Assembly: GCA_000091205.1 (NCBI GenBank)
Contig: AP006496.2
Length of the DNA: 64,000 bases
Direction: 5' to 3' (one strand)
DNA from: Cyanidioschyzon merolae
Lineage: Eukaryota
The notes beneath the pieces are model-generated. The model was not told the origin of the DNA. It made no database searches and saw only the letters and a list, made by a program, of their open reading frames with translations. The position numbers were made by a program, and so were the translations under genes. The stretch's first letter is position 1; each line of letters opens with the position of its first letter. Of this stretch, positions 1-64,000 are shown piece by piece.

Positions 1-2823
1 CCAGTGAGATGAGTCTACTAGGGGTAAAAAGCCCACAGGGCGTGCCCCGTGAAGCGCTCCACATTGGCTCGCATATGCTTTTGGTTTTCAGAATGCTTCG
101 ATACTTTGTCGCATCTATCCTGCGGTTAGGACGGTCACAGACGTGGCAACGCGACGCGACAAGGCATTCTGGCACGTGTGTGTTTTTTTTTGCGATCCCT
201 GCTCCGACGATCACGCCATTCTGCATCCTCTGCCCGGGGTATATGTTGTGTCGTCGTACGAAGGTTTGATCGAAGAATTCCACAGGAGCGAGGACAACTG
301 GCACCTATGCGTACGGATCTCGTGAGGAAACTTCCTCGACGAGGTGCGTCAAGACGTGCAAAGCGAGGTAAACCCTCGTCAACGGACAAACCGAGCGATC
401 TCCAATAGCGTCCGGCATATCTTTTTGGAAGATTTGTCCTGGCGCTACGTCCTCGTAGAAAAGCTTTTACAACGGTTTCAGGTTGATCTCCCGGCTCGGA
501 AAGTTTCTCGTTTCGGTACCTTCTCGTCCTCTTTTCGGGAGGATTTCTCCTTTTCATCCGATGACTCCTTCTCCATTTCGTTTCTTTCGCGATGTGGCAT
601 GGATGCGATTGTTGTACTCCATACCTGGTTTCTGTCGGGATTCAGATGCGCTGGATTACGGGTGATACCAGGATCCGCATTCTCTATGTATGTATCTACT
701 ATTCCTCAGATAACTTTTGGTGAACTTCTCCGTCGCGAGCTTCTCTGCAGGCCGACAAAGGCATTGCCACCACCCGATGCGCACGAACTGTAGCGTCACA
801 GCGCAGTTGAGGGCCGGTCAAGGTAGAGAACTACCTGCCAAGCAGCAATTCATCGAAAACCTTTCGTTTCACGGATGCAAACGACTCGTCTAGCGTTTCA
901 TGGCCGTAACTACGGTATCAAACAGCAGAGAAGACGCTTTCGTCTGGATTGAATCAGGGGAACACGACGACGCGAAGAGCAACAGAACACCAATCATAGC
1001 TGCGTACTCCTTTATTGCTTTGGTTGATCCAAAGCGAAGTTCTCTAATAGGTGGACAGAGGAATGCGGGAAGAGGAAGCTACGAAGAGTGCCAACACGAG
1101 GGTTAAGATGCTGAAGGATCCTGACCGTTTGGCGATGTTTGGGCGACCAGACCAGGGCGTCGCCGTATGGCTGACGTTGTCGTCATACTCGCTTCTCGCT
1201 TCTATGCGAGCACCAGCTTAGTCCTCTCTGCGCACTCGCATACAGATCTACCATTTCTCCCAAATAAAGCCTCATGAATGTAGGTGAACACCTGGCCCTC
1301 CAGTGCCAAGCGTTCGCATTTCACCAGGATATCGATCGTGCGTTATTCAACGCGTGACGCGTCTAGCGTAGAAATCTGTGTTGTTCTCGGTCCGATAGGG
1401 TGTCTTCATCACTGTCCGCAATAGCGGTCCGGATGCTTCACATCCTGTGGCTTCTTCTATAGTGCTTCCTGGGGAAATCAAGGCATGGATTGGATTGACG
1501 AGAACATAGTCGTTCAGATAGGGTTCGCCAGGTTCTGTCGTGGACGCAAAATGTTAATATTAGGGATCAGGAGAGCGGCGGCTCACCTAGCCGATGAACT
1601 ATGAACGACTGATTGATGAATGAGCGACCGTTTGAGGCATGCTAGCAGCGACAAAGTCAAGTCTTTATGGCACCTTCCTTCAATCTGCAGGTTACATTCT
1701 TTTTGTTGAATAGATACGAAAAAAATAAACAAAAATAAAAACAGGTGTGTGAGTACGGGTGTTCCAGAACCCACTGCTCAGAGTCTAACGTCTCCGGATT
1801 TCGCAGCAGAGCGCATGAGGTAGCGTGCACCCTCGGGCCCATTTCCTCGGTAACGATCATGACCTGAATAGGCGGCAAGCGTCGCAGAGCTTCGGTGCGC
1901 AGTGGCAGTGGGTCGCAAGCTCTGCGTTTACAGAGCATGCATCCAGCTTCAAAACGTTGAATGCCGGTCAGTTTTTCTGGATTTTCACCACGTCGCTCTC
2001 GCTTAACATAGACTGGAGGGAAGGAATTCGTCGACGTGGCGTACCGCGTGCACGACATAGCGTCAGCGGGGCTTTGCATTGCGCACTGCAGAGCCGGCTC
2101 TTCGGGCACCTATTTCGCTTCCACGAACTGCGTCATTCGTGCGACCGGGTTGGCGTCGAGGGCGCGCTCGCTTTCGAAACCCCATGGTTTCGAGCCGCTC
2201 GCGAGAAGCGACAGCTCGGTGAGCACACTCTAAAAGACCGCTGTTGCAACGAGACGGGTCGGTTTCCTTTGAAAACTTCACGGCACTGGGTCGTCAACAC
2301 GCGTACAGCCGGGGCTCTGGGTTACGGCACTGAGGTAAAACCTGTGACTTGCATATGGTCGACGTATTTGATCCCTGATCCAGATCCATAAAACTGTGTA
2401 ATCCAGGACGTAGTACTCCCGTTCCAGAAGAGCCCCGCAACTCCACTTTCAGAGAGCGATGCAACCAAACACCGCGCCGCTGCATACCGTTAACCTAGCA
2501 GGCTCCTTCGTTAACGAGGCACCAAAAAGGCAAAGACGAGCACCGCCACAGAGTCCCAGAGACTCTATGCAATATCTCTTGCCTCCAAGCGCAAGGCTAG
2601 GGGGGCTTGAGAACGCCCGAACAACGGCGTGCAGGGTCCATTGCCCCAGACAAACACGTGCCCGCAAAATCCGGTCCCAATAATAGACACAACGTGATAG
2701 CGTCAGTGCAATGTACAATGTATGGAGGCTTGAGTCCGCCAGTCGGAAACCGCATACATTGCCAGAAGAGCCTACGTGTTTCCGTGAGCAGTTGGTGCAC
2801 CGCCTGCGATACGAGGCGCGCCG

Positions 2824-3264
2824 ATGCCCACTCGAAGCGCGCGCGCGCGCGCAGGCACGCCGCCTCGTCTGATAAGAGACTCTTCGTCGTCTGCCGCGGC
2901 TTTGTTGAGTGTTATTCTCCTGTACGCAGCTCTTGCTCCAGTGGGTACAGGCGCGACGCATACCATGTCAGGTTCGCTATGGAAACAACTGCTTACGCGC
3001 GGTAGCTCCTGGATAGAACCTTCAGCGTCTCCCGAGGCGTGGGAAACGACAGCTGAACTTCGCAGGAAGCTTCTGTACACACACCTAAACGCTTTGCCAG
3101 CTCGTTGGCAGGCCGCACAGAACGAGTTCAGGGCGCTGCTGGACAAGATGCGCGCGAAGCAGGTCACCGTCGAAGAGGCCGGGTGGTTCGGCGTGCGCTG
3201 TGTTGAGCTGTATGCATTCTATTGTTTGGGGGTCGTGATCGGGGCGCGCTCCCTCCAGCCGTGA
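2824..3264 (+). CDS. Mitochondrial F1Fo ATP synthase subunit g (probable true start at Met ~2965, 'MSGSLWKQ…')
   Basis: C-terminal 'QVTVEEAGWFGVRCVELYAFYCLGVVIGARSL' closely parallels the subunit-g C-terminus (human ATP5MG '…TVKEAVLNGLVATEVLMWFYVGEIIGKRGIIGY'). Size (~100 aa) fits. The first 47 codons of the ORF are probably an upstream extension. Confidence 0.5.
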   Translation: MPTRSARARAGTPPRLIRDSSSSAAALLSVILLYAALAPVGTGATHTMSGSLWKQLLTRGSSWIEPSASPEAWETTAELRRKLLYTHLNALPARWQAAQNEFRALLDKMRAKQVTVEEAGWFGVRCVELYAFYCLGVVIGARSLQP

Positions 3265-4311: not shown

Positions 4312-4480
4312 GGTTCACGGAACTGTCGTGTGTGCTGTTCTGGAAGTCAACAAGCAGCCGCTTATTCAGAACGTTCCTGGTACGCGAATTGCGCGCAGAG
4401 CGCACTGCACGTGCGCGATCGCAGATTTTTCTCGATTTGCAAAAACTTTTACGTAGACCATGGATCCCAGATTGTGGGAT

Positions 4481-4592
4481 GCATTGGCATTGGCATTGGC
4501 ATTGGCATTGGCATTGGCATTGACATTGGCATTGGCATTGGCATTGGCATTGGCATTGACATTGGCATTGGCATTGGCATTGGCATTGACAT
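4481..4592. repeat. (CATTGG)n hexanucleotide microsatellite, ~18 units with occasional GACATT variants
   Basis: Direct reading: 'gcattggcattggcattg…gacattggcattg…'. It produces artefactual poly-dipeptide ORFs in all frames (HWHWHW, CQCQCQ, LALALA, ANANAN). Confidence 0.95.
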
Positions 4593-4739
4593 TCGGGAAA
4601 GCGTCCATCATGTTGCGACACCCTACTTCCAAGTTCCATGACCCATACTTCCTCTTTGGTATACTGGTCGTTTCGTATGTTCTATCGTGCGCCGAGTACC
4701 TGCTTTGAACCCCAGCACAAGCACCGCTACCGCTGGAAC

Positions 4740-5075
4740 AGATACTGCACGGAGACAGAACGGCTTTGCTATACCGCTGAGGGTATCGGGCTGAGGCGTG
4801 GTTGGCGCGATACCGGGTCGGAGTACACCGTAACTCTGGGATCGCTCGAGCAGAGACTGCACGGAGACAGAACGGCTTTGCTATACCGCTGAGGGTATCG
4901 GGCTGAGGCGTGGTTGCCGCGATACCGGGTCGGAGTACATCGTAACTCTGGGATCGCTCGAGCAGATACTGCACGGAGACAGAACGGCTTTGCTATACCG
5001 CTGAGGGTATCGGGCTGAGGCGTGGTTGCCGCGATACCGGGTCGGATTACACCGTAACTCTGGAATCCTGCAAGC
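4740..5075. repeat. ~114-bp tandem repeat (minisatellite/satellite-like), ~2.9 units
   Basis: The unit 'agatactgcacggagacagaacggctttgctataccgctgagggtatcgggctgaggcgtggttg[g/c]cgcgataccgggtcggagtaca…ctcgagcag' recurs head-to-tail at ~4740, ~4854 and ~4968. Overlapping minus-strand ORFs share the repeated peptide 'RPGIAATTPQPDTLSGIAKPFCLRAVS'. Confidence 0.9.
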
Positions 5076-7035
5076 TGTGCAGAGAGACGTACTGCGGTCG
5101 GTAGCACGTGGCGGCTTCGGTTTGTGTGCCTTGCTGAATGTTAGGTTCAGGATCTTTTGCAACGAGGTGGCGCATCTCGAGGTACGATCGATGCGCACCT
5201 GGTCCTGTCAATGTCACAAACCGCGAATCAGACTTTCGTCAAAGGTTAACAGTTCGCTGACGTGACCCTCAGGGTACCGGGCGTATAGTGTGCGCTCGCG
5301 GAGAGCGCCGCTGAGGATGCTGCGTTGATATACAGCAACTTCACCACGTCCAGGAGAACGTCGGCAGGGAGTCGAGATATTCGATGCGTCTGCTGCAACG
5401 TATGGCACATGACCCTGGATGAACAGCCGTGCATGTGCATCGCATGACTTCTGTGGGGTTTCTTGCGAGATACGTCGATCAGTTGGTCAGAGTCCGGGGC
5501 CACAGCTGTTTCTTCAGATCGATCACAAGTAAAGAATGAGTTCGGTAATACGTCGCCGCTCCGAGGGCGCGATATGCGCATGCCCTGAGTCACGGGGTAT
5601 GGCGGATCGGCGAGAACGTCAGTGCTGCTCGCTTGTACCCTACCAAGCGGAACAAATCGACACAAACGAGCTATTTTGTTGTCATGATACCTCGAAGATC
5701 CGGCAGACGGACCACGAACCTGAAGTGCAGTGTTTCTGCATATGCAACGCAAGAGCGCCAGCGCCGGGTTCCGTGTCCGGAAGATGTGCGCAGCCTCGTT
5801 GAACCCGAACCCAGGTTGTTTTGAGAGCGAACCCCAAGTTGATTTGCAGCAGCCGCAACGATCGTCGCATGCTTCTTGTTCGTTTCTGACCGACGTGACT
5901 GCATCCAGCGCGCGGAGATGAGCAAGTATTCAGGCCTGCCGAGCGTTCGAGGAAAATCCAGAGTCCTAAGCTGCATGGACAAAGCAACTGCATCTGCCAC
6001 GTAGCCACGGCACTGTAGCGTCAACAATTGCGATGCACCGGAGGCTTCTCCGCATGCAATCGCAGGGATCGTGAGCCTTGTTCGCTGCTGTATAGCAGGA
6101 ACTTGATTCAACTCGCAGTCGTGCAGCATCCATCGCATCTCCAAATGCTTTGTTCGCGAGACTTGCGGATATAACGCTCGCTGCGCAGCGTTCTTGAATA
6201 TGATCGCTGACGGCTTCATATGCGGAGCAAAAACCTGCTAGGCACATCTGGGCAAAATTACCGTGACGACGGCATCTCGGCGCCTCGAGCTCCGGATCCG
6301 ACGTACGCCGCTACGGTGCACATGCACGAGATCTCGCTCGCGAAAGTAGTGTGATCCTTTTTTCGTATCATTTGCCACCTAAAATAGCAGTTTGTGATCA
6401 GTCTCGGAGGTTCGGGTCAGATATGAGAGCACGTACACGCTCCGAATAGCACCGTTTCATTGCCTTGGGGATTCCAGCGTCCAGTGCTTCGCCTGGCGTG
6501 CGTCATTGCTGTGACGCTCGAACGCCCAGCGCACCGGCAGACGCACATCGCACCAGTGTGCCGAGCATTCGCGCTGATTCCGGAGACAGATTTATAAACG
6601 GAGCCTTTAAATCGAGTCAACAATCCCCAGTCCTAACTTTCATTGAACAGGCTCCATGCTGTACCTGGTTGTTCATGCAGTGTAAGCGCGTGCTCGAGCG
6701 AACGAGTCATGAAAAGGTCTGGCAGTCGAGCGCATGCCCGTACGCAACAGATGGTGTGCATATGACTCGATGCAGAGCGCACTCGAGCGCATGTCGAGCT
6801 GTGCCCAGCACGCTGTCTATCCCTGGATTCGCGAACGGTACGCTTGAATTACGATCCGTTCAGCTGCAAAAGGCACATACCTCGGACATCCGGTTCTCGA
6901 TAGAGATATCGCAAGCTGGAGATGGTTTGCATGGTGCCGGAGAATGAAATCCGTTCTTATCGCACAGGCATACACCGATGCGCCGTTTCTGCAACATAGC
7001 GTCATACCAGAAAGGCAAAAGCTTCGTGCACAGAG

Positions 7036-9177: not shown

Positions 9178-10440
9178 GCTTTTTTTTCTCGGCGACAGCT
9201 TCCAGTCGTTCTCTTCTTTACATCAAGATCAGTTTTCAGCAGTCGAGGGATGGATGTTGATGGCAGCGTTCAACGCCCGAATTCCCTGCTTTCCGCTACG
9301 TTCTATTCATTGAGCCGACAGACGCTACATGCGATCTACGCTTCGCATACGATACTCTTTTCTTCTGTATACAGCCTCGGTGCGCACGTCGCACCGTTGA
9401 CAAATGAATGCACAGGGGCGCTCCCATGCGCCCACGAGACGCGCTACTTACGGACAGCCGCTTTGTGGCGCTTGGACGTTGGCGTCATCGCCCGTTACAC
9501 ACCCTTGGCGCGATAAACAAGGCTGACCCAGAAATGCCCTCCGCAGTTTCCGCACCCGGTGTTGTGTCGCAGGTGCACGGGCTTGGTCTGTGCGATGCCC
9601 TCAGCGCATGCCCTCTGAACCGCACGCGCAAGAGCAAGCAGCACCACTCGATACAGGGTTTGCGGGACGCTTTCTTCCACGTCTTGAGACCAGTACCAGA
9701 CCGAACATCTAGACTTGAGAGCAGGTCGAGAAAATGCGATCCGTCTACGCCCCCGTTCATGGAAAGCGATGGCGGTCGTACCGCCAAATGCGATCGCATC
9801 GATGACTCAAGCGCGAGTCCAAGACCCTTTGCTGGCAAACAGATGAGCCGCCAGCCCCTGAGTGCATACCCCCTGAGAGGCACCGTGCCGCTGCCGTCGG
9901 ATGCCGAATGACATGTCGTCGACGGCCACCAAGAGCGGAGGGTATGTGTTTCGAGCTGAATCTGTTGCTTGATGAGACAGGTTCAGTGAACTTTCGGCAT
10001 GAGCGTCTGGGAAAGTCTCCAAAGCTGATGTAGAGTTTTTCCCCGTCGTCGTCCATCCAGCGGCGATGCCTGCTGCGCCCTCGTGCTGCCTTGAAGCAGA
10101 ACCATCGAAAACTTGAAGAATTCGGTATCTGAGCGTGCTGCAGGCAAGGAATGTTGAAACGCAGAGTCCGCATCGTATGATTCGGATAGTGCTCCCGTTC
10201 ACGTTACGAAGCGTAGATCGAGGGCGTCGACACTCCCCTTGTACCGTGCACATAACGATTTCCAGCGGCAAGGAGTCGAACGAGCCACTCGGAAAACTCG
10301 ACCGAGAACCCGGATTCAATGAATGCATCTGATAGCGCTCAATGCGGCATATCTACTGCCAACGCTCTACATCTACAAAGCAAGACTGAGAATGCAATCG
10401 CAAGGCAGCAATTGATCGAACGGTTCAGTGCTCCATTTTT
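9178..10440 (-). mobile_element. Dispersed repeat family 1, copy 1 (~1.26 kb; inverted relative to copies 2 and 3)
   Basis: Encodes the same ORF set as 12168..13440 on the opposite strand: the 65-aa ORF 'MLQARNVETQSPHRMIRIVLPF…' is identical, the 173-aa ORF identical, and the 138-aa ORF differs by 1 aa. Sequence correspondence starts at 'ggggggcttttttttctcggcgacag' and ends at 'ccatttttat'. Confidence 0.85.
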
Positions 10441-12167
10441 ATGGTGGCAGGTGTATAGAGTCTAGGATATGGTTTAAGGCGCAATATGGATGACGAAATG
10501 TAACGGATTGTCGCGGCATGAAGAGAAAATTTTAGATGTACGAGTATTCATGAAGCCAAGACTGTACTCATCTGACGAGCCGCTGCAAGCGACACAGTAC
10601 AAGTAACGCTGATCATTTTGACGATAGTGGACATTTTTCTTGTTGTGCATTGTGTACAACCTGGCGCATAAGCAGCGCGCGCTCTCCAGCAGTGGCTCTG
10701 CACCGCGACCGCAACTACCTCGTGTATTACACAATTCCCGCAACAGAGTACGCTCACCATCGACATGATCCGTCTCTAGTTGCGCGCTTACGGCGTTACA
10801 AGTTCCAGCTGGCGGCTATTCTGACACTATCGGGAAGTGCTCTGGTTGCAGACGGAGAACCGGAACCAGCGCGACGAAAGAGCTGCAGTCGAACCGCAAT
10901 TCTCTGATGCAAAGGTTCACAGAATGCTTCGTTCGTGATGCAGCGTGGAGAGAAGCAGTGCGCTCCCTCCATTGCCCCAAGTTCCTTTTCGTGAACTGAC
11001 CCGCAGGCACTACGGGCATCTTCCTGATACCGCCAGTCCGTTTATTGTTGCTGCTCGGGCAACTTGAAGTGCTAGACGGTTTCTGCTAGAAAACCCGCCA
11101 AAAAGCTTGCTATACGGCGTTTACATATGAATCTGCCTAGTAACCCTAGTCGTCCGGCGTTCTCGCTGGCCGAGGAGAACGTTGTCACTTCGGAATGCAG
11201 ATGCTGGCGCGACATCCTCGGCGCGATGCATTGCTGCCCAGAGAGTTCCACAATCGAATTTGTCTGTTTCGTGTCTGCCACAGCATGTGGAATACAAATG
11301 TTTGCCGAACAGAAGATTGAAAGTTCTCCAACAGGTCCGGTCGCTGCAGTGTGCAACGCCTGCGGAGGCGCTCCCGCGTTCGAGGTTATTTATTCAGAGG
11401 GTTTCAGGCACTCACGGTTTAAAAGCATGAACCAGACCCGATCGCACAACGGCTCGTACGATAGCTGTCGCTGTGTCGTCTTCGATACGCCGTGGCGAGG
11501 CACTGGCAAAGCTACCTCTCCATCAGTCCCTGGTGTGGCGCTGAGCTCGTGGCCCCAGGCTCTGAAGGTCTGGGGGCCCTTGGCTTCGCTGCAAGCGCGA
11601 GTTTTCCGTAAACAATGTTCGTAAAACTCTTCCAAAGCCTCACACAGACCACGATTCGATTCGTGCACGCCCATACCGTCAGTGCACCCGGCGTCAGGCG
11701 TGTCGTAAAGGTAACACTGGAGCCCGCTCGTTGCCCTGTTTGGAGGACGCTTGTGTGCTGTGTTGCAACTTGCTCGCCGAGCCACAGTCGTTCGCTAAAC
11801 GCACCAATTACACCATGTTAATCTCAAGTCCGAGTAGAGCACTGTTCGAAACGTCCTCTTTATGCCAGAGTCGAGAATGGCTCTTATTCGCAAACGGTCT
11901 GAAAGAAATAATGCGGCGGGTGTGCGGCGTCGCCCGTGTTCATCGAATATCCTGCATCGAGTTGGTGCTGCCAGGAGGATATTGTCGTGAATATCGATCA
12001 ACATTCATCCAAGACGCATGTACCTCCGGAGGGAAATATGGAGAGTAGTGGTTCGAACTTGAATCTACAGAGCGGTATCATGGATGCTCACGCTGAAACC
12101 GATAACCGTCACAGAATCAGGGCTCCCTGCTTTATGTCAATATTCTTCGACACTACACTGGCGACGG

Positions 12168-13440
12168 CATAAAAATGGAGCACTGAACCGTTCGATCAAT
12201 TGCTGCCTTGCGATTGCATTCTCAGTCTTGCTTTGTAGATGTAGAGCGTTGGCAGTAGATATGCCGCATTGAGCGCTATCAGATGCATTCATTGAATCCG
12301 GGTTCTCGGTCGAGTTTTCCGAGTGGCTCGTTCGACTCCTTGCCGCTGGAAATCGTTATGTGCACGGTACAAGGGGAGTGTCGACGCCCTCGATCTACGC
12401 TTCGTAACGTGAACGGGAGCACTATCCGAATCATACGATGCGGACTCTGCGTTTCAACATTCCTTGCCTGCAGCACGCTCAGATACCGAATTCTTCAAGT
12501 TTTCGATGGTTCTGCTTCAAGGCAGCACGAGGGCGCAGCAGGCATCGCCGCTGGATGGACGACGACGGGGAAAAACTCTACATCAGCTTTGGAGACTTTC
12601 CCAGACGCTCATGCCGAGAGTTCACTGAACCTGTCTCATCAAGCAACAGATTCAGCTCGAAACACATACCCTCCGCTCTTGGTGGCCGTCGACGACATGT
12701 CATTCGGCATCCGACGGCAGCGGCACGGTGCCTCTCAGGGGGTATGCACTCAGGGGCTGGCGGCTCATCTGTTTGCCAGCAAAGGGTCTTGGACTCGCGC
12801 TTGAGTCATCGATGCGATCGCATTTGGCGGTACGACCGCCATCGCTTTCCATGAACGGGGGCGTAGACGGATCGCATTTTCTCGACCTGCTCTCAAGTCT
12901 AGATGTTCGGTCTGGTACTGGTCTCAAGACGTGGAAGAAAGCGTCCCGCAAACCCTGTATCGAGTGGTGCTGCTTGCTCTTGCGCGTGCGGTTCAGAGGG
13001 CATGCGCTGAGGGCATCGCACAGACCAAGCCCGTGCACCTGCGACACAACACCGGGTGCGGAAACGGCGGAGGGCATTTCTGGGTCAGCCTTGTTTATCG
13101 CGCCAAGGGTGTGTAACGGGCGATGACGCCAGCGTCCAAGCGCCACAAAGCGGCTGTCCGTAAGTAGCGCGTCTCGTGGGCGCATGGGAGCGCCCCTGTG
13201 CATTCATTTGTCAACGGTGCGACGTGCGCACCGAGGCTGTATACAGAAGAAAAGAGTATCGTATGCGAAGCGTAGATCGCATGTAGCGTCTGTCGGCTCA
13301 ATGAATAGAACGTAGCGGAAAGCAGGGAATTCGGGCGTTGAACGCTGCCATCAACATCCATCCCTCGACTGCTGAAAACTGATCTTGAAGTAAAGAAGAG
13401 AACGGCTGGAAGCTGTCGCCGAGAAAAAAAAGCCCCCCAA
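12168..13440 (+). mobile_element. Dispersed repeat family 1, copy 2 (~1.27 kb)
   Basis: >99 % identical reverse complement of copy 1, judged from translated ORFs and direct alignment of both ends. No TIRs, no recognisable transposase or RT motif. Overlapping ORFs on both strands suggest a non-coding, non-autonomous element. Confidence 0.85.
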
Positions 13441-27944: not shown

Positions 27945-28483
27945 GACGCGGGAGACGACTGGCATCGATCACGATTGCGACGCTGCCGAAGCTGCTGCGG
28001 TTCATAGAGCGAGATCCCTGCGATTACGTAAACAGCGGTATACCGATGTATAGGCATAGCGCGCACCGGGAGCTTGTGTGTTCGCGATCCGCCTCAGGTT
28101 CATGAGGACCGACATTGATCCCCAGCTAGCTGCTGCGGTGCCTTGCCGAGCGTATCTTGTCGGAGCAGCAGGACGCTGATGTGCCTGGCTTCTGGATGTC
28201 AGTATCCGGCACTTGATCAGCAGATCCTTTATCAGACGAAGTGATTCTATATTATTGAAAAATCGACGAGCTGGAGCCCATGACATGAATCGAGACCGCA
28301 TGCACAGTCCTGCCCGTTCGCTTTGAAGATATCGCTCGTCAGAGGTCGGAGCAGCTATCAAAGTATATGCATAAGACTATCTCCTCGTCAATAGGTTCCG
28401 TCGCTCACGTTGTTTAGGCTCAATGAAGCGAAAACGTTTCGCAACTATCGGGTGCAAGAATACCCACCCGCAGATGCCTCCCA

Positions 28484-29893
28484 GTCTTTTTTCGACGGGC
28501 CTCTTGGCATCGGCTTCAGTTTCTCCTTGAATACTTCGAGCTTCAGAGGCTACACTACAAAGACGGAACGCGTCAGCTCTGCGGGTCTGGTCGACAGCAC
28601 TGCACATCGTCTGGTATTCATGGAGATGTTGAAGGATCGGTTTACGAACTCTTTGCGATTTGTTGCCGCTGGTGGAACTCACCGTTGCAAGGGTTGTGTA
28701 GAGCTCGCGCCTGCTGTGCTTCGACAGTCTCGTCTTCGTCCCGCTGGGCAAATACGTTTTCTCGACGATCTCCCCTCTTCTCCTTCTCCTTCTCCTTCTC
28801 CTTCGTCGCTTGCGCTTCTTCGCTCGATGGTCGGTGAGAAGAGGATTTTTCCGTTTCTCTTCCAGGCGGCTGGCGATGACGGCCCTCGTGTATCCCCGAC
28901 TTTCATGTCCATTACTTTCACGTGGATTCCCTTATTTCTTCAAAATGAATGCATTTTTTATGCCGCTAGGTTGGGATGTTCCCGAAGAAGACCGGGGTTT
29001 GCGCAAGAAAGCTGACCTGTGCTCCCGATTTGTCGCTGTGTGCAGAACGCTTCTGCGATTCCTCCAGTGCAGCAATCATTACGTTGCATGATAAAAAACA
29101 CTCCCTTGCTGAGGTTGAATCACGCACCGTACGGAGTAATGAAAAGCAACTCGACCCCGATATCATCGGCAAAAGCCCTAACGCAAAGGGAATGGTAACA
29201 TGCAACATTGTCCATTGGAAGCACGTCGCCAGACGTCAGGGAGAGGTCACCCGTGAATCGACCAGGTCGGTGCTGTTGTGTGCGCCTTCTCTAGGAGCGA
29301 ACGTGATTCTGCCACCCGGGCCCACTCCAGATAAATCCGATGAGGATATCATCGCTCTCTTCGAGCTTCAACAGACGTACAATGAGCGCCCTGCTCCGCG
29401 AATACCCATATACGCACCGCCCGTTTCACCCGAAGCAAGTCTCATCGACAGAAAAAACACACCAGCGTCACTCGGCTTCATATCGATAGCGACTCTCCAT
29501 GAACGCTGTCGTTGCGATTTCAGTGGATGTTGGTCGTGCGTGAAGCTGGACTTTTCTGCGACGGTATCCCAGTGATTTCAGGACCACACGAACAAGCTGT
29601 TGAGAAACAGAGATGCCCGTGGCGGCCTCTATCGTCGCTTTTGCTTTCCGTAACGTAAACGAGGGGTCGTTTTCTACCATTTCCCGCAAGCGCGCTTTGA
29701 GAATATCGGTTTTAGGTGCAGAGCGCTTGTACTTCTTCCTTTCAGCGTTCCTCAACCATCTGAGTACCGTGGTATGACTAACTTGAAGGAGAGATGCAGT
29801 CTTCCTTGAACTTTTCAGTAAAGAATATATCCTCCAGGCAATTCTTCTACGATCTACAGGGTACATTCCATAGTGACTTTGTTCGCTTGCTAC
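28484..29893 (-). mobile_element. Tc1/mariner/IS630-superfamily-like transposon remnant, family 2 copy A (~1.41 kb)
   Basis: 98-99 % identical, inverted copy of 40452..41858 (translated ORFs differ by 1-3 aa). Contains a transposase N-terminal HTH ORF and an internal (TCTCCT)n microsatellite. Boundaries come from direct alignment of both copies ('cagtcttttttcgacgggcc' … 'ctttgttcgcttgctacacac'). Confidence 0.8.
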
Positions 29894-29950
29894 ACACCCC
29901 AGCAGCCGTGAAACGAATCTGGGTTGAAATACGATAAACAACGTCATCAT
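29468..29950 (-). pseudogene. Truncated Tc1/mariner/IS630-type transposase (paired-like double HTH only; DDE domain absent)
   Basis: '…YSLLKSSRKTASLLQVSHTTVLRWLRN…KRSAPKTDILKARLREMVENDPSFTLRKAKATIEAATGISVSQQLVRVVLKSLGYRRRKVQLHARPTSTE…' has the HTH1, GRPR-like linker and HTH2 arrangement of Tc1/IS630 transposases. The ORF stops where the DDE catalytic core should begin. Confidence 0.6.
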
Positions 29951-40138: not shown

Positions 40139-40451
40139 GCCTCGTGTTGGTTGCCTCCTATGTGAGCGTTACCGCTGTCGCTCTCGTCACCAGGGTAACG
40201 AATGAGCCAGAAGGACGACACTTGGCATATGCGACTTGCGTCCACGCTAAACACCGTTACCTGAGCGACGACGCATCCAAAGCAACGGTGCTTTCCCCGA
40301 GGGATAGGTACGCTTTGCTCAGCAGCAGCGCGTAACGGACGCGTTCTAGGGGCGCGCGGCACAACGATCCGCATCGGGGCCATTTTCGCTCTGGAGGGCG
40401 CACCCCAGGCTCGACGTCGATTCTGTTCCACCTCTCCTAGTACCTCAGTGG

Positions 40452-41858
40452 TGTGTAGCAAGCGAACAAAGTCACTATGGAATGTACCCTGTAGATCGTA
40501 GAAGAATTGCCTGGAGGATATATTCTTTACTGAAAAGTTCAAGGAAGACTGCATCTCTCCTTCAGGTTAGTCATACCACGGTACTTAGATGGTTGAGGAA
40601 CGCTGAAAGGAAGAAGTACAAGCGCTCTGCACCTAAAACCGATATTCTCAAAGCGCGCTTGCGGGAAATGGTAGAAAACGACCCCTCGTTTACGTTACGG
40701 AAAGCAAAAGCGACGATAGAGGCCGCCACGGGCATCTCTGTTTCTCAACAGCTTGTTCGTGTGGTCCTGAAATCACTGGGATACCGTCGCAGAAAAGTCC
40801 AGCTTCACGCACGACCAACATCCACTGAAATCGCAACGACAGCGTTCATGGAGAGTCGCTATCGATATGAAGCCGAGTGACGCTGGTGTGTTTTTTCTGT
40901 CGATGAGACTTGCTTCGGGTGAAACGGGCGGTGCGTATATGGGTATTCGCGGAGCAGGGCGCTCATTGTACGTCTGTTGAAGCTCGAAGAGAGCGATGAT
41001 ATCCTCATCGGATTTATCTGGAGTGGGCCCGGGTGGCAGAATCACGTTCGCTCCTAGAGAAGGCGCACACAACAGCACCGACCTGGTCGATTCACTGGTG
41101 ACCTCTCCCTGACGTCTGGCGACGTGCTTCCAATGGACAATGTTGCATGTTACCATTCCCTTTGCGTTAGGGCTTTTGCCGATGATATCGGGGTCGAGTT
41201 GCTTTTCATTACTCCGTACGGTGCGTGATTCAACCTCAGCAAGGGAGTGTTTTTTATCATGCAACGTAATGATTGCTGCACTGGAGGAATCGCAGAAGCG
41301 TTCTGCACACAGCGACAAACCGGGAGCACAGGTCAGCTTTCTTGCGCAAACCCCGGTCTTCTTCGGGAACATCTCAACCTAGCGGCATAAAAAATGCATT
41401 CATTTTGAAGAAATAAGGGAATCCACGTGAAAGTAATGGACATGAAAGTCGGGGATACACGAGGGCCGTCATCGCCAGCCGCCTGGAAGAGAAACGGAAA
41501 AATCCTCTTCTCACCGAACATCGAGCGAAGAAGCGCAAGCGACGAAGAAGAAGGAGAAGGAGAAGAGGGGAGATCGTCGAGAAAACGTATTTGCCCAGCG
41601 GGACGAAGACGAGACTGTCGAAGCACAGCAGGCGCGAGCTCTACACAACCCTTGCAACGGTGAGTTCCACCAGCGGCAACAAATCGCAAAGAGTTCGTAA
41701 ACCGATCCTTCAACATCTCCATGAATACCAGACGATGTGCAGTGCTGTCGACCAGACCCGCAGAGCTGACGCGTTCCATCTTTGTAGTGTAGCCTCTGAA
41801 GCTCGAAGTATTCAAGGAGAAACTGAAGCCGATGCCAAGAGGCCCGTCGAAAAAAGAC
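40452..41858 (+). mobile_element. Tc1/mariner/IS630-superfamily-like transposon remnant, family 2 copy B (~1.41 kb, inverted relative to copy A)
   Basis: Reverse-complement match to 28484..29893 across all ORFs (199-aa ORF has 2 substitutions; the transposase-HTH ORF is identical over the shared part). Confidence 0.8.
40482..40880 (+). pseudogene. Truncated Tc1/mariner/IS630-type transposase HTH domain (copy B)
   Basis: Same 'YSLLKSSRKTASLLQVSHTTVLRWLRN…' sequence as 29468..29950. No DDE core follows. Confidence 0.6.
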
Positions 41859-42022
41859 TGAGAGGCTTCAGAGGATATATACACGCCCCATGATAGTGCA
41901 AAGAACTGCGTTTCATTGAACACGCGCTGACGCGAGTACAGTTTGGTTGCGCTTGTACTTGCGGTAACGCTACGTCTCGAAAAGCGCGCATTAACCTCAC
42001 AGATGCTTTTCTTGCACTTCCA

Positions 42023-49416: not shown

Positions 49417-51284
49417 TGTCCATCAAATAGCGATGTGCAGGTGTCCATGCGGTGCTGGCTTGACAACTGAGGTGCTCAGCGGTTTCTGGTGCTCGTTCCA
49501 AGTCGGAACCCAAACGGGTCAAGTGCTGGCCTGCCGCCACAGCGGGGCGTCGGCCTCGGCGCTGATCGAAGATTATCGTTTATTGGACAGAATGCTTGTA
49601 TGGACTAGGGATGCTAGATTCCGCGATGGATAGTGACATCCAGGAACGCGCAGATCATTCTTGACGCTACATCCACGTTAGATTATTTATACTCGTTCTC
49701 GGAGATTCTGGTCATTTCCTGCGACAAAAAACTGCCGAGGCTGTCTTGAGCACCCGCAATAACGCCCATACAACCGGTGCGGATTCAGTACGGAGACGAA
49801 ACGGCTTCGAAATACTCCCGGGAGCGTCGGCTCGAGGCACGCTTCACTAGTCACAGAATCGGGATGCATCATCATTCTGGGAGCCTGAATCCTGCGCATA
49901 CGGAAGCACTGCCTGTGGAGGCGCGAAGCGATGTGCTAGGAGTCCACTGCGACCATAGCGACGCCCCTACGCAGCTTACCAGCTACGGGTCCCAGAATGA
50001 AATGCGTTTCGGACAAGCAGCCATGTATTGGCTCAGCACCCGTCAGTGCAGAAGCACACAAAGCGCTGGCCCAGAACACTCATCCGGCTCGCAGGACCTG
50101 CCTCTTAGACGTAAATGGTCGAATATACAGGGAATGTTTTCCCCTTTCATCGCTCACCATATCCATTCAAACACCAGGTTCTCGAGTTGCTAGTGCGCAT
50201 TTCGTTTCTTCGAGATTGCTCATGCACACGATTCTACCCGCCGCTGCGTCTTCTCTCCGTGCATTGCCGGGCACAGCAGCAGGCACACAGCACCCCGAGT
50301 GACATATGAACTGGGCATGCACTCCGAAGGGAAGCATGTTCAGTGACTAGCTTAACTTGGAGGTCGGATGCGGCATGATGGGCGTTTTCACTTATGTCGA
50401 TACCTTTCGCGTACAATAGCGCGTCGTCGGTTCCTCTGGGGGTTCCGTCGATCAAAAACACAGGCGCGATGCTGTGCGGGTAGCCGCGCGAAGCACTGCT
50501 TCCAAATAGCGTCAAGGCGAGATATCTTTTGATGATTGATCCACGAATCTGACCAGCAATCCCCGGGATATGCAACCGCTGCCTATACCCAGGGAAGCGA
50601 GCCCTCATGTGCTTCGGAGACCTCTGGGTCACGTGAATCACGCTCCAGTCTGACTGTCGAGAATGAGCGTTTCATTCACCAAACGAGCCTCCAAGCGTTG
50701 AATCCTAGTCCAGCACCGGACATAGCACCAGCAAACGCGGGCATCTCAGCACAGAACACGCGTATCGTGCCTGCAAAGAAGACTTCACTCGCAGGATTTG
50801 ATGTTTTTCTCACTGCATCCATCGATGGCAAGCGCCATGGTTAAATGCCTACCCGCTAGAATCTTTCCCGAGAATAGAGGATCGTTTACCATGACCAGGG
50901 ATTCCCCACTGCACGACGCTCACTGGTATCCGAGAGCGTGTCGCTTGTTCCGCACCTCACCGTCAGGGTCCATTGGCGAACCCGCTTCATCACTGTCCAG
51001 GATATGCTGGAGCATACCGAACGCAGTCAGCTGGGTACACGTGTGGGAAGCAGCCCGTCGAGAAGCGTGGCGCTGGGCGAGCTACATCTCCCGACGTGGC
51101 GGAACGGGTGCAAAGCATCCCAAAACAGCTTCCGTTCGTTGCTTGAAGCAAGTGCAGGCACCGGATACCGTTCAAAAGCGCTTTCATACGTATCACGTTC
51201 GGTTCGAAAGAGCGCTTCGTCCAAGTCGGGACTGGACGACGTTCGTGTGTTTCCGGAAGTGGAGACGCAAGTCGGCGACAATCC

Positions 51285-59295: not shown

Positions 59296-61785
59296 GTTCT
59301 ATACGTCAACTGATGGCGAATGCGTCTCGCGGAGCTCGCGTTTCGTCGATCGAGAAGCGCATCGATGCGATTCTCGATCAATAGAGCTGGTGCTTTCCGC
59401 TGCTGACGCTGCCGCCTTTTTTTGGATAGGCGTGGTGTGCTTTGGCATTTGTGAGCTTGGCAACCTGGTGTGCCACTGGCGCTTGCGACAGGCCCCATAC
59501 GGCTTGGTTTTCGAGCTTGTGTCGTGTCCGAACGACACACATTTGAGGTACTGGTGTGGGCAGGATGTACATTGATGACGCAGATAATCGCAGGCATCCG
59601 GTTTATGCTCGTGGGCATTGCGCAGCTGATGGTCTGGGTTCGGGCGAAGCATCGGCAGTCTCTGAAGGAATTTGGAACCCTCTATCCCTGGATGAAGAAA
59701 CGCATGCTTCCTTTCGTTTGGTGAATGCGCAGCGGGTCACGAAATTTGTGTGCGTGCTGATGGGCAAGCCCTGACTTGGAGGTACGAGGCCGGTGCGCTT
59801 GTGACTTTTCGTCACTTTTGGATGATGGTGGATTCGGTGATCGTTGGAAACCGTGTAGTGAAGTGCACCCATACTCGTGATGGTGCTCGATAGTCGAGCA
59901 ACCAAAGTGCACTCGGATATTTTTCCCAGAATACCGTGGCGGCGACTAGACATCACCCTGAATATGAACGTTTAGGGTACGCGCTTGTTTTACGTACGTA
60001 TTAGGAAACCGTAGCATGCTGTGCGGCTTCGTTGCGCACTATTCACGGCCAGCATGCCGTCACCAGAGCACCTGGTGCCGGCTGCAGCCTCCAGCTTCTG
60101 GTACCGATCGTTTGATAGCGCCAGTCAAGATGGATCGTTTCTTGACCTCAGCTCTATCACTAGCGTTTTCGACAAAACGTCATCAATATCAGAAGACGAC
60201 TGGTGATGGAGGCGCGACCGGCGGAGCTGACGCGGTCCACCTTTCTGGGACATCCTCTCAGGGTCGAATTGTACAAAGAGAAGCTGCAACCGATAGCAGG
60301 GGGCCGGTCGAAAAAGGCTAGGAGACGTCTGTGATTGGATATTAATTTACCCTAAATGGTCGTGAAACGTTTTCTTTCCATTGAACGGTAAGGGATAGAG
60401 AAAAAATCCGTCTCTCGAGCAGTTTTACTACTGGAAGGGAAAAATCAGCAGGTGGCTAACGAACATCCGCGTGCTTAAGGAATGGCGGGTGGCGTAGGGG
60501 GTGCAGATAAGTTTACGGTTTGGTGCTTGCACAACTACATACAAGTTAGGCTCTTGAAACTAATCTTATAGAGTAGATAAGAATACAGTATGTGCTTTTG
60601 TCGGGTGCCTCGATCGTGCCAGGCGAGATGCGTCGGCCGAACGTCGTGGCAGATATGGACGCTACCTGTGTGCTATGCCTCTGTCAAGATCACCGGGTCC
60701 GAGACAGTAGCAGGCACCATAACTTGGGCAATGACGATAGCATGGAAATGACTTGAACGGTCATCAGTACCAGCCCATGACGCCGGAAAGAAGCAAAATT
60801 CATGTCAGTTCCTTATTCCAGCGTCCGTGCAGCATGCATAACAAGCATAGAGAATAAACTTACATCCGTGTTCGGGAACACTACCGTATTTAGTTTGGTT
60901 ACGATCAATACAACTAACGAAACTCTTCAAGGCTAGTGTGATGCATACCTCATCCACACAAGCGTAAGCCGCAGAGAACGCTACGCTTTTGATAGAAGCG
61001 TCGAGAGGTATCGTGCCAGGCCCCAACAGCTCCATGTATGTCAGGGCGGTACTGCGATGGGCAGTAGCGTCGGCACCAGCGACATAGCCTATAGCAAGAG
61101 ACTACTCTACGTGAGTTTTCGATTTAGGACACCTGATTTTTGCTGCTGCGCGATGCGAACACGCAAGTGCCAAGGCGGGGTGTCGGACACGTGTCCTTCA
61201 TCGATCGGTGAGGCGTCTCGCGCGGTGCACGCATCGCGCTCGGTGAGCGCATCTGGGAGATCAGGCAGACATGAGACACGACATGTATGTCGCCGTTGAA
61301 GGGAAATGCGATCGCGATCTTTAGCGTGTTGCTCTCAAGTTGTATTTGCGTTAAAGTCATAGCAGAGTATACTTTTCAGGTCAATTATGTTTCAACCCTC
61401 AGTTTAGTTTATTCAAGTGATTTTTCGCGGTTTATATCAGAGGCGTTGATGGAGCGTTCTTTTTCAAAAAAACAAAAAAGGAAAGCTATGAAAAAGCAAG
61501 TCGGCGATCCTGGAGGCCCAGGGTCGCCGGCTGTCAGAAAAAAAAAACAAAAACAGTGCCGATTCCAGAAGAAAAGCAAGAGAAAAAGAAGCAAAAGGGG
61601 AGGCCTTACGTCGAAGGCGGCAAAAAAGACAACTGTACGACGAGATGGTGGTTAAAGGCTGTCTTCTTAAACAAATCAAGGATCCCCACAGGGAAACGTT
61701 GCGATACGCTATCGAAAAACGTGTCGACTCGTACTCGAAGAGTATTGTCAAGGCGTCGTCAGGACTGATGCATTTGTCGAGGTAG

Positions 61786-62460
61786 ATGTATCGCGAAGTG
61801 GCGCACATGGAAACGGTCGAGATTCCGGACGAGTTTTTCGACAAGACCTCTATTCGTCAGCTGATGCTTGGTACAGGGGAAGCGCGGAGGGAAACTCAGA
61901 TAGTGCATGCCCTCCACGAAAGCTTCGCGGAATTCCGCTTCGAAGGTAATCGATACAAGGGTGACTCGACTATTTACATATACGGGGCGGTGAAGTACCT
62001 CACGAACCTGAGGAACCATATGACGATGGACCTCGAACATTTTATGATACGCGCCGTGTTCGCTCTCGACCCGCGCATCTCTCGCAAAGGTGCACAGGCG
62101 ATGATCAATGGCATCACGAAAGATCGCAAGCGTGAAGATGAGGTCGAATTTGTAGACAAGAAGGCGTCAAAAGAGCGCATGAATGAAGCTTCTGTAATCC
62201 GTGCGGCTATCCAAGAGCATCGTGCGGTACTGGGGTTTGTTAATCCAACAGAAAAGATATCAGAGTTGAAAAAAGACAAGGAAAGATACTATCGCCTCGT
62301 CCTGCGATATTTCGTGTTTCTGGACCGAGAGCTCGAACGCAAAGCGGAGATGAAGCTGAGTGAGGAGAGAATTAAAAAAGAGTGGGAGAGACGGGCGGCT
62401 TCGCTCATGGGAAGCGCTTCTACGCGGTTCCAATGTGCAACATCAAGTCACATTTTGTGA
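61786..62460 (+). CDS. Hypothetical 224-aa ORF directly upstream of the Fanzor/TnpB-like RuvC core (possible N-terminal exon/domain of the same gene)
   Basis: Lys/Glu-rich helical ORF ('…[44 protein letters not shown]…'). Preceded at 61409..61768 by Lys/Arg-rich NLS-like coding potential in other frames. Linkage to the downstream RuvC segments is inferred from adjacency only. Confidence 0.3.
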
Positions 62461-62606
62461 CGATCGACTCCAGCATCCTCTATGGCATCATGAGACAGAT
62501 CAGTGGGGAGTTCGATGTTAGCAACGGGAAGTTCATCGGTGAAAACCGGGAGATGCACTAGAAGAATATCTTCGAGTTCAAACTTCTCAAAGCGGGCAAG
62601 CAAAAG

Positions 62607-63713
62607 TTGTTCACTGGGATGATCGAAACCGATGGAGTAGCCTTGTGTGTACACGATCCGCGGTTGACGAAAGATCGTTCAGTGCCGCCCTCGGCTTCGC
62701 CCGTGGCGAAGGATGCAGAAAACAAAGCGGCGGATCCTGCGACGCAGCAGGTAGAGGATAACGACCTTGTCGTTGGTACGGCGAAGCATGAAGATGAGAA
62801 GGAGGCGGGTCTTGAGACGCAGAAAGTGCAGGATAACGACTTTGTCGTTGGCGCGGCGAAGCATAAAGATGAGAAGGAGGCGGGTCTTGAAACGCAGAAA
62901 GTGCAGGATAACGACTTTGTCGTTGGCGCGGACCTCGGGAACACGAATATCGTAACCATCGCAGCATCCACGCCTGGGGAAGATGATACTGACGGTGACT
63001 TACGTCAGAGAGACACGCGACTTTTGAGATTCCCGACAACGAGATGCTATCGAGAATCCGGTATAACGAATGCAAGGAAGAGAATCGAGATATGGAATGC
63101 AGGAGTGAAAGAGCACCTCGAAGCTTTGAGCGAGGTAACGAGCCGCGGAGCGGACTTTCGAGCTTTTCGGGAATTCCCGCAAGTTCGTGTTGCTCATTGG
63201 GATGCGCTGTAGAGGAGTATACAAAGCCTCGGTGGGCTCGTTTGCGAATGAACTTGCACTGTGGGAAGCAGCGTGCATTCGCGAATTTTTTCAATGAGTT
63301 GCGTGCCCTGAAGGAGGATGAAAGTCAGAGGCCCGTAGTAGCGTCTTGGGCAGGGCGATGGAAGACCCAAACAGGGACTACTCCAGCTCCAACGACGAGG
63401 GTATGCAAGGAGTGTGCACGGCGTTTCGTTACAATACCGATAGATGAGTTTCGAGCATCGTATACACACCACGAGCTGGGTTGTACACTTCAGAGGGTCG
63501 AGATGGAAACGTGTCAGCGGCGCCCTGAGGATACAAAAAGTACGGACCGCTGACGGAAGAGCAAATGGAAAGGAGGGCGACAGTTCGTGGACTCCTTGCA
63601 CTAGCGCTTTCTGCAAACAACGGCAAGAAACGTATCGAATCGTGAACGGAGACTTTAACGCCGCTATCAATATAAGGAAATGTACGGTGATGGAAAGAAG
63701 ACCTCCAGAGTAG
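62607..63713 (+). pseudogene. Fanzor/TnpB-like RuvC-nuclease core (eukaryotic OMEGA-type RNA-guided endonuclease homologue), read through three frames (62607..63212, 63044..63553, 63444..63713): frameshifted or intron-containing
   Basis: The RuvC-I motif 'DFVVGADLGNTNIVTIAAS' matches the TnpB consensus 'vGiDlGi.n.a'. Upstream, '[13 protein letters not shown]' is β-strand-like. The middle frame 'WAGRWKTQTGTTPAPTTRVCKECARRFVTIPIDEFRASYTHHELGC' matches 'GDW…G..P……V..VDEy.TSq.C'. The final frame 'WTPCTSAFCKQRQETYRIVNGDFNAAINIRK' is a C-x4-C zinc finger plus the RuvC-III hallmark '[DR]D.NAA.NI'. Confidence 0.55.
62748..62930. repeat. 72-bp (24-aa) tandem repeat, ~2.5 units, inserted immediately upstream of the RuvC-I motif
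   Basis: 'cagaaagtgcaggataacgac[c/t]ttgtcgttgg[tac/cgc]ggcgaagcat[g/a]aagatgagaaggaggcgggtcttga[g/a]acg' repeats. Translated it gives 'QKVQDNDFVVGAAKH[KE]DEKEAGLET' x3, and the last unit ends in the genuine 'DFVVGADLG' motif. Confidence 0.85.
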
Positions 63714-64000
63714 ACGAGTGAGAACTTTGGGGACAACCTCTCAGCGTGGGACTATATGAGAAAAAGCTGGAAGCAGTAGTGAGTGGCCGCCCCCAAAAAA
63801 CCGGGAGGCACCTGCACGACAGTTGGAGGCTTCTTGTCTAGGGCGGGCTTCGCGCCACTACTGTACAAGGTCGGCATCGTTTTTCTTTTGAAAGACGTTT
63901 GTTTCCAGGGGTGGCTCCTAGTATATTGCTTCGCGCTGCCGCAGGCACTAGTCCTGTATGCGCAATTTCAGGCTCCCAGAATGATAAGGAATCCCGATTC

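Follow-up and report, generated by a model that had tools for sequence, protein, structure and literature searches.

What kind of gene lies behind the broken run of reading frames at the right-hand end of a 64,000-nucleotide stretch of Cyanidioschyzon merolae contig AP006496.2 (hereafter the window), and could it still make a protein? Fanzors are eukaryotic relatives of the bacterial RNA-guided TnpB nucleases, and a first-pass annotation, made from the letters alone, had proposed that positions 61409-64000 encode a TnpB/Fanzor homologue on three consecutive reading frames. Our analysis indicates that the region 61235-63897 is almost certainly a decayed copy of the transposable element CMe-1A, one of about 150 old copies in the C. 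merolae nuclear genome, and that it carries a Fanzor1 pseudogene. The homology is borne out by profile matches, by fold and by the literature. The finding is real but ordinary: the CMe-1A family was described in the C. merolae genome in 2013, so the novelty implied by the first-pass annotation does not hold.

Identity of the element and of its protein

In a global alignment with the CMe-1A consensus (taken from Additional file 2 of PMC3627910), 61235-63897 matches consensus positions 648-3169 at 85.1% identity. A blastn comparison with the same consensus divides the match into 61235-62776 (consensus 648-2191, 83.8%) and 62852-63897 (consensus 2117-3169, 85.6%). CMe-1A was reported to occur in approximately 150 copies, each about 80% identical to a 3169-bp consensus that lacks terminal inverted repeats (TIRs) and encodes a 734-aa single-exon protein; its 5' 635 bp are 95% identical to a separate repeat, TE-N2_CMe, and the accompanying phylogeny assigned CMe-1 to the Fanzor1 clade (Bao & Jurka 2013, PMC3627910). 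The divergence of the window copy is typical of the family, with identities of 0.80-0.86 in the copies that we analysed against the published value of about 80%.

Joining the window frames by hand gave a stitched protein of 689 aa, for which 52 homologous proteins were found. The best of these, P0001 (E = 3.4e-293, 66% identity, 100% coverage), is an intact 752-aa open reading frame (ORF) of the CMe-1 type of Fanzor1, located at 10001-12259 of locus L001 on a Cyanidioschyzon-like metagenome contig (Ga0504780_000149, JGI 3300050362). Pfam recognizes only a weak DUF8286 match in P0001, which from its sequence is a candidate active member of the family. Relatives matched at E = 3e-293 exclude a chance coincidence of motifs.

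As both Pfam and single-sequence searches were silent, detection of the Fanzor relationship needed a family profile. The profile search that the first-pass annotation had suggested was productive in this form: profile A2, built from 11 family members, matched only Fanzor1 chains in the PDB, among them Parasitella parasitica Fz1 (9cf0, E = 8e-10) and Spizellomyces punctatus Fz1 (8gkh, E = 4.6e-7). Both comparisons bring into register the ETDG strand motif and the three catalytic residues: Asp of RuvC-I (G-x-D-P-G), Glu of RuvC-II (DEF/Y-[RK]-TS) and Asp of RuvC-III (NRD). Structure prediction, likewise suggested, was applied to the intact relative and returned Fanzor1 folds first. With the AlphaFold model of P0001 as the Foldseek query (predicted local distance difference test, pLDDT, 65; predicted template modelling score, pTM, 0.48; 75-bp repeat region predicted to be disordered), the top seven PDB matches were all Fanzor1 proteins (SpuFz, PpFz and GtFz), at E = 1.6e-12 to 2.7e-9 and template modelling (TM) scores of 0.43-0.54 normalized to the query and 0.47-0.65 to the target; Cas12 proteins ranked after them, with E above 0.01.

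All significant profile and fold matches being to Fanzor1, and none to Fanzor2, TnpB or Cas12, we consider it very improbable that the locus represents another gene of the RuvC/TnpB type, be it a Fanzor2, a horizontally acquired bacterial TnpB or a chance set of motifs. Such an origin would accord with the absence of a Pfam match in the window translation, with the degenerate zinc finger, and with the distant family member P0052, whose only relevant match is a sub-threshold one to Cas12f1-like_TNB. It sits poorly with a helical N-terminal half and a basic N-terminus that fit Fanzor1, with the presence of the sequence in many copies in a eukaryotic nuclear genome, and with the published phylogeny (PMC3627910), and its chance variant is excluded by the E-value to relatives.

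Several points weigh against the identification of a Fanzor1 relic. Pfam found no relevant match in the separate ORFs or in the stitched protein, and a phmmer search of PDB sequences with the stitched protein alone returned nothing. The P0001 model is of moderate confidence, and any RNA-guided mechanism for CMe-1 is borrowed by analogy from SpuFz1, GtFz1 and TnpB. Moreover, given the absence of a canonical C4 zinc finger, even intact CMe-1 members could differ functionally from other Fanzors. Membership of CMe-1 in Fanzor1 rests on descent and fold, and not on the zinc-finger motif.

Catalytic motifs and decay of the reading frame

All of the motif strings quoted in the first-pass annotation are found in plus-strand translations, and the codons of the D/E/D triad survive in the window copy, although on different frames of the broken ORF (Table 1). 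The pre-RuvC segment of 13 aa is the conserved IETDGV strand motif, in which T, D, G and C are invariant in the family and which aligns to LETDGVGV of PpFz1 and ITTDGASV of SpuFz1. Family and Fanzor1 alignments confirm the proposed retention of the RuvC-III catalytic Asp (NGDF; consensus NRDFNAAINI), and the RuvC-I Asp (GADLG; consensus GADPGNTN) and RuvC-II Glu (IDEF) are also kept, with WAGRW at 63347-63361 (+). Within the family the RuvC-II Glu and RuvC-III Asp are invariant and the RuvC-I Asp is nearly so.

A C4 zinc finger between RuvC-II and RuvC-III forms part of the Fanzor signature of Bao & Jurka (PMC3627910). The C-x4-C finger previously proposed for this locus, CTSAFC at 63597-63614, is read in frame 0, whereas the homology over 63583-63639 runs in another frame as VRGLLALALSANNGKKRIE; the apparent finger is therefore an out-of-frame artefact. 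VRGLLALALSANNGKKRIE occupies the position of the second cysteine pair and, like the family consensus, contains no cysteines. In place of the GLLRC...SC of PpFz1, the consensus and the sequences closest to it show RGLLALVSTT, and CMe-1 has H and L instead of the first cysteine pair, so that the whole region appears as THHELGC...RGLLAL(V/A)S in the consensus and the window against C-P-K-C...LLRC...SC in PpFz1. PF07282 is absent or sub-threshold in Pfam searches of the window translation and of P0052, the latter keeping CxxC...CxxxxCxC and scoring 22.7 bits (E = 1e-4) against a cut-off of 26.3 for this model (Cas12f1-like_TNB). Judged from these alignments, the defect in the C4 zinc finger (OrfB_Zn_ribbon) is lineage-wide in CMe-1.

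The Lys/Arg-rich stretch and the 224-aa ORF that had been noted ahead of the core are the N-terminus and the helical N-terminal half of the same polypeptide. The basic N-terminus, broken in the window by two frameshifts, reads MEKEVEDPGGP...KKRK...KKQKREARRQR in the consensus; it is common to the window copy, the consensus and the diverged protein P0046, and its composition would be compatible with a nuclear localization signal. Just upstream of RuvC-I, the window copy has three tandem 75-bp (25-aa) units in frame where the consensus has one. Among the related loci the number of units ranges from 1 to about 6 (L045, L046, L051, L053, L063, L067 and others), which is the behaviour of a coding minisatellite.

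The start codon of the pseudo-coding sequence (pseudo-CDS) corresponds to the consensus ATG at 906, and the consensus protein reads like the window translation from there onward. Compared with the consensus, the window copy has seven frameshifting indels (+2 at 61547; -1 at 61598, 62409, 63211, 63536, 63640 and 63730) and two in-frame nonsense codons (TAG at 61783-61785 for GAG, and TAG at 62559-62561 for TGG), and the coding sequence lies on about eight frame segments and not on the three first described. Two length changes leave the frame intact: +3 at 62371, and +150 at 62705, where the two additional 75-bp units account for the gain.

Frame switches at approximately 63044-63212 and 63444-63553 had been put down either to spliceosomal introns or to inactivating frameshifts; the second explanation stands and the first does not. 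Both the intronless consensus and the uninterrupted P0001 ORF run colinear with the copy; each switch is an indel of 1-2 nt, and tblastn segments of P0001 abut there without intervening DNA (for example, one segment closes with residue 576 at 63209 and the next opens with residue 578 at 63212). Both TAG codons fall within conserved blocks, SR-stop-MYR standing against REMYR and EMH-stop-KNIF against ETYWKNIF. C. merolae reportedly has only some 27 introns genome-wide (Matsuzaki et al. 2004). Introns are common in eukaryotic Fanzor genes, and multi-exon Fanzors appear in Additional file 1 of PMC3627910, but CMe-1 itself is catalogued there as single-exon. On the sequence comparison the switches are 1-2 nt indels, introns are excluded by the colinearity, and we attach next to no credence to an intact, spliced Fanzor gene at this locus.

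Seven frameshifts, two nonsense codons and the expanded repeat together leave the window copy unable to make a nuclease, and its status as a pseudogene explains why the locus is unannotated. At the three codon positions the copy matches the consensus at 0.863 / 0.874 / 0.821, against about 0.84 in the untranslated regions (UTRs), in agreement with mostly neutral decay. In related loci (117 aligned segments), the corresponding values are 0.871 / 0.896 / 0.810 against 0.80-0.82 for non-coding sequence, a contrast which implies that part of the diversification of the family took place under purifying selection, as was also argued in 2013 (PMC3627910). The majority of the 81 related loci are broken too, and a near-full ORF is found among the Cyanidiales copies only in L001 and L050.

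Table 1. Coordinates of the features of the CMe-1A copy and its immediate flanks in the window.
Feature	Position	Strand	Basis or remark
Upstream repeat module	59494-61234	+	Replaces TE-N2 5' module; 81-85% homology to sequences that precede the Fanzor unit in other loci
CMe-1A copy	61235-63897	+	Consensus 648-3169; 5' 647 bp (TE-N2_CMe module) missing
Fanzor1 pseudo-CDS	61488-63841	+	Lesions mapped base by base against consensus
Lys/Arg-rich N-terminus	61488-61640	+	Translation and consensus comparison
IETDGV strand motif	62616-62654	+	Family alignment and Fanzor1 structure alignment
75-bp tandem units, three copies	62702-62931	+	Alignment to consensus
RuvC-I VVGADLGNTNIVT	62919-62957	+	Family and Fanzor1 alignments
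RuvC-II IDEFRASYTHHELGC and first half of degenerate zinc finger	63440-63484	+	Family and Fanzor1 alignments
Second Cys-pair position VRGLLALALSANNGKKRIE	63583-63639	+	tblastn homology, no cysteines
RuvC-III NGDFNAAINIRK	63645-63680	+	Family and Fanzor1 alignments
3' end with three potential hairpins	63823-63915	+	Folding; candidate omegaRNA or transposon-end structure
Inverted TE-N2_CMe-like fragment	63911-64000	-	Consensus 366 to 275, 87% identity; cut by window edge

Ends of the copy and a possible role of its RNA

The window copy begins at consensus 648, and a 5' start at consensus 648-671 is shared by many metagenomic copies. Homology in the upstream module begins at 59494 in L038 and L026, at 60545 in L043 and at about 60780 in L003, L039, L044, L047 and L048, and it stops short of the neighbouring trehalase gene. 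The module holds an older Fanzor C-terminal fragment (60179-60337, ending ...RPAELTRSTFLGHPLRVELYKEKLQPIAGGRSKKARRRL and a stop codon), and a 356-bp segment (60312-60667) is missing from the otherwise colinear L038 and L026. A six-frame hidden Markov model (HMM) search of 59494-60179 detected no hidden Fanzor coding. Taken together, the start at consensus 648 and the different upstream module make the window copy a structural variant of the CMe-1A family. An inverted-repeat search at the element ends found no TIRs joining either 59494 or 61235 with 63897. We considered L038 and L026 as orthologues of the window locus and rejected this, since the homology starts at 59494 and stays outside the trehalase gene. 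In L002, L022, L030 and L042, CMe-1A copies occur as head-to-head inverted pairs joined near consensus 660-740.

The 3' end, which had been expected beyond the window edge, lies inside the window: homologous DNA extends to the consensus terminus at 63897, and conservation among some copies continues for a further 7-19 nt or so (to about 63915). A TE-N2-like fragment begins 14 bases past the terminus at 63897 and has a related copy at 49856-49947. The last ~90 nt of the element can fold into hairpins, one over the stop codon, one formed by GGCG..CGCC and a terminal one, CGTTTTTC-TTTT-GAAAGACG. The terminal hairpin (63865-63897) exists in two versions, CGTTTTTC-TTTT-GAAAGGCG (T-rich type A) and CGTTCGA-CTT-TCGAACG (TTCGA-type B), which fold at the same position in different registers (3' ends of L001, L015, L049, L057, L058 and others), and blastn alignments can be grouped by where their 3' ends lie, at consensus ~3145 or at 3169.

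Characterized Fanzor1 proteins are DNA endonucleases guided by omegaRNA and dependent on a target-adjacent motif (TAM), their omegaRNA being transcribed from the element 3' end with the guide just past the right end (PMC10432273, PMC11423790). CMe-1A is a non-autonomous transposable element without TIRs, whose single intronless gene encodes a Fanzor1. By analogy, this protein when intact would be a TnpB-like RuvC endonuclease, directed to DNA by an omegaRNA from the element 3' end, and may, as is thought of Fanzor1, aid the persistence of the element. The window copy is a pseudogene, with a non-TE-N2 upstream module, that has drifted approximately 15% from the consensus.

It is conceivable, but in our judgement unlikely, that the dead ORF is accompanied by a function at the RNA level, the 3' end supplying an omegaRNA-like guide in trans to the rare intact CMe-1 proteins. 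ORF-less 'ghost' loci of Spizellomyces punctatus can provide working omegaRNAs for SpuFz1 (PMC10432273), an intact relative exists in P0001, and the 3' end of the window copy reaches the consensus terminus in full and keeps its three hairpins, the terminal one included; the folding of two sequence variants at the same place in different copies would also be in keeping with such a role. The structural statistics argue otherwise. Hairpins are present at the 3' ends of all copies folded, yet with z-scores of only -1.0 to -2.5, and a single hairpin was all that RNAalifold predicted from 51 3' ends. Covariation in a hand-specified structure of three or four hairpins is not significant (83.5% paired cells against 82.5% in shuffles, with 63/500 shuffles equalling or exceeding the observed value). 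Conservation of the 3' UTR (0.82) is no better than that of other non-coding parts (0.80-0.81), and an Rfam search of 60-64 kb at E<=1 returned nothing.

At the other end, a TTTTTC(T)-like T-run precedes the TE-N2/CMe-1A 5' start in about 12 of 15 independent junctions (L007, L012, L041, L053, L065, L072 and others; 4430-4441 in the window). Judged by its sequence, the run could be a TAM-like target motif, or the element may be a few bases longer than the recorded consensus. A repeat of the element 3' end in the 5' flank was considered and rejected, the likeness being confined to the T-run of ~10 nt. Because TIRs are absent, the 3' terminal hairpin has two versions and the 5' motif is T-rich and could serve as a TAM, one may speculate that the zinc-finger-less CMe-1 Fanzor1 moves like single-strand elements (of the IS200/IS605 or Helitron type), with the many ORF-dead copies, the window copy among them, as omegaRNA donors to a few intact nucleases. 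We regard this as doubtful; if it were true, C. merolae, being genetically tractable and poor in transposable elements, would be a place to test in vivo how Fanzors benefit their elements.

Neighbouring repeats, significance and known systems

The copy resides in the C. merolae nuclear genome, as other genes in the window show. Five of the eight window ORFs looked up are identical to C. merolae 10D proteins (BAM81207, BAM81208, BAM81209, BAM81214 and BAM81215), and the Pfam content of the long ORFs is that of eukaryotic housekeeping genes (Sec1, BK channel, 6PF2K, trehalase).

Further repeat remnants lie elsewhere in the window. An inverted duplication (28473-29898 / 40450-41869; 1,426 bp, 98.9% identical) flanks the membralin and Sec1 genes, with ~10.5 kb between its arms. 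Both arms contain a Fanzor 3' fragment that has diverged to ~69% identity (consensus 2862-3084) and an ORF with a Tc1/mariner-type transposase helix-turn-helix (29468-29950, - strand; HTH_Tnp_Tc3_2, E=4e-7). A search for TIRs bounding the 1.4-kb duplicated unit found none, and the unit may be the remnant of a recently copied mariner-plus-Fanzor element. TE-N2_CMe-like copies at 4442-5108 and 49586-50147 (+) are 73-88% identical to consensus 1-567, and the former includes three tandem copies of consensus ~191-301 (4585-4841, 4843-4953 and 4955-5108). The left edge of the window (21-427, -) holds an N-terminal piece from a more diverged Fanzor1 lineage, which matches residues 62-189 of P0046 (E=7e-10, 32% identity) and none of the CMe-1 proteins; to go by this similarity, a second Fanzor lineage may formerly have been present in the C. 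merolae genome.

The window locus itself carries little weight, being a single decayed copy in a family of repeats on record for this genome since 2013. The interest lies at the level of the family and is independent of the window copy: CMe-1 is the principal repeat of a very compact, thermo-acidophilic and genetically tractable alga, and it long kept its coding capacity while missing the canonical zinc finger. P0001, from a hot-spring metagenome, is by its sequence a candidate heat- and acid-adapted eukaryotic RNA-guided nuclease.

Comparison with known systems places these features in context. Fanzor1 structures from Spizellomyces punctatus (SpuFz1; 8GKH, 9CEU-9CEZ), P. parasitica (9CF0-3) and Guillardia theta (9CER) have a full-length fold like that of P0001 (E~1e-12, TM 0.52-0.65), yet share only 12-15% sequence identity with CMe-1, which lacks their four zinc-finger cysteines. 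These three are proven omegaRNA-guided DNA endonucleases (PMC10432273, PMC11423790), whereas such activity would be expected of intact CMe-1 by analogy, and Spu-1 elements have 30-nt inverted repeats where CMe-1A has none. The 'ghost' Spu-1 loci resemble the window copy in that no protein is possible and the 3' end region is kept, but they are conserved units of ~550 nt bounded by inverted repeats with demonstrated omegaRNA function (PMC10432273), and the window copies are decayed relics; the solo Fanzor 3' fragments at 28.5, 41.7 and 60.2 kb are ghost-like, yet stop before the terminal hairpins.

Bacterial TnpB of IS200/IS605 elements (for example ISDra2) and Cas12f have a comparable RuvC nuclease core and a guide RNA at the element 3' end, and IS200/IS605-type elements likewise have subterminal hairpins and no TIRs or target site duplications. 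Cas12f matches the P0001 model only weakly (E 0.1-0.9, TM ~0.17-0.28), and the window locus differs from IS200/IS605 in its eukaryotic nuclear setting, its long helical N-terminal extension and the lack of any TnpA (HUH) transposase seen there. Set against the CMe-1A consensus, the window copy is without the 647-bp TE-N2_CMe module, has another repeated module upstream, carries three 75-bp units for one and has lost its ORF. With the CMe-1A family (PMC3627910) it nevertheless shares the host genome, 85% nucleotide identity, the basic N-terminus, the RuvC motifs, the C-terminal tail and ends without TIRs.

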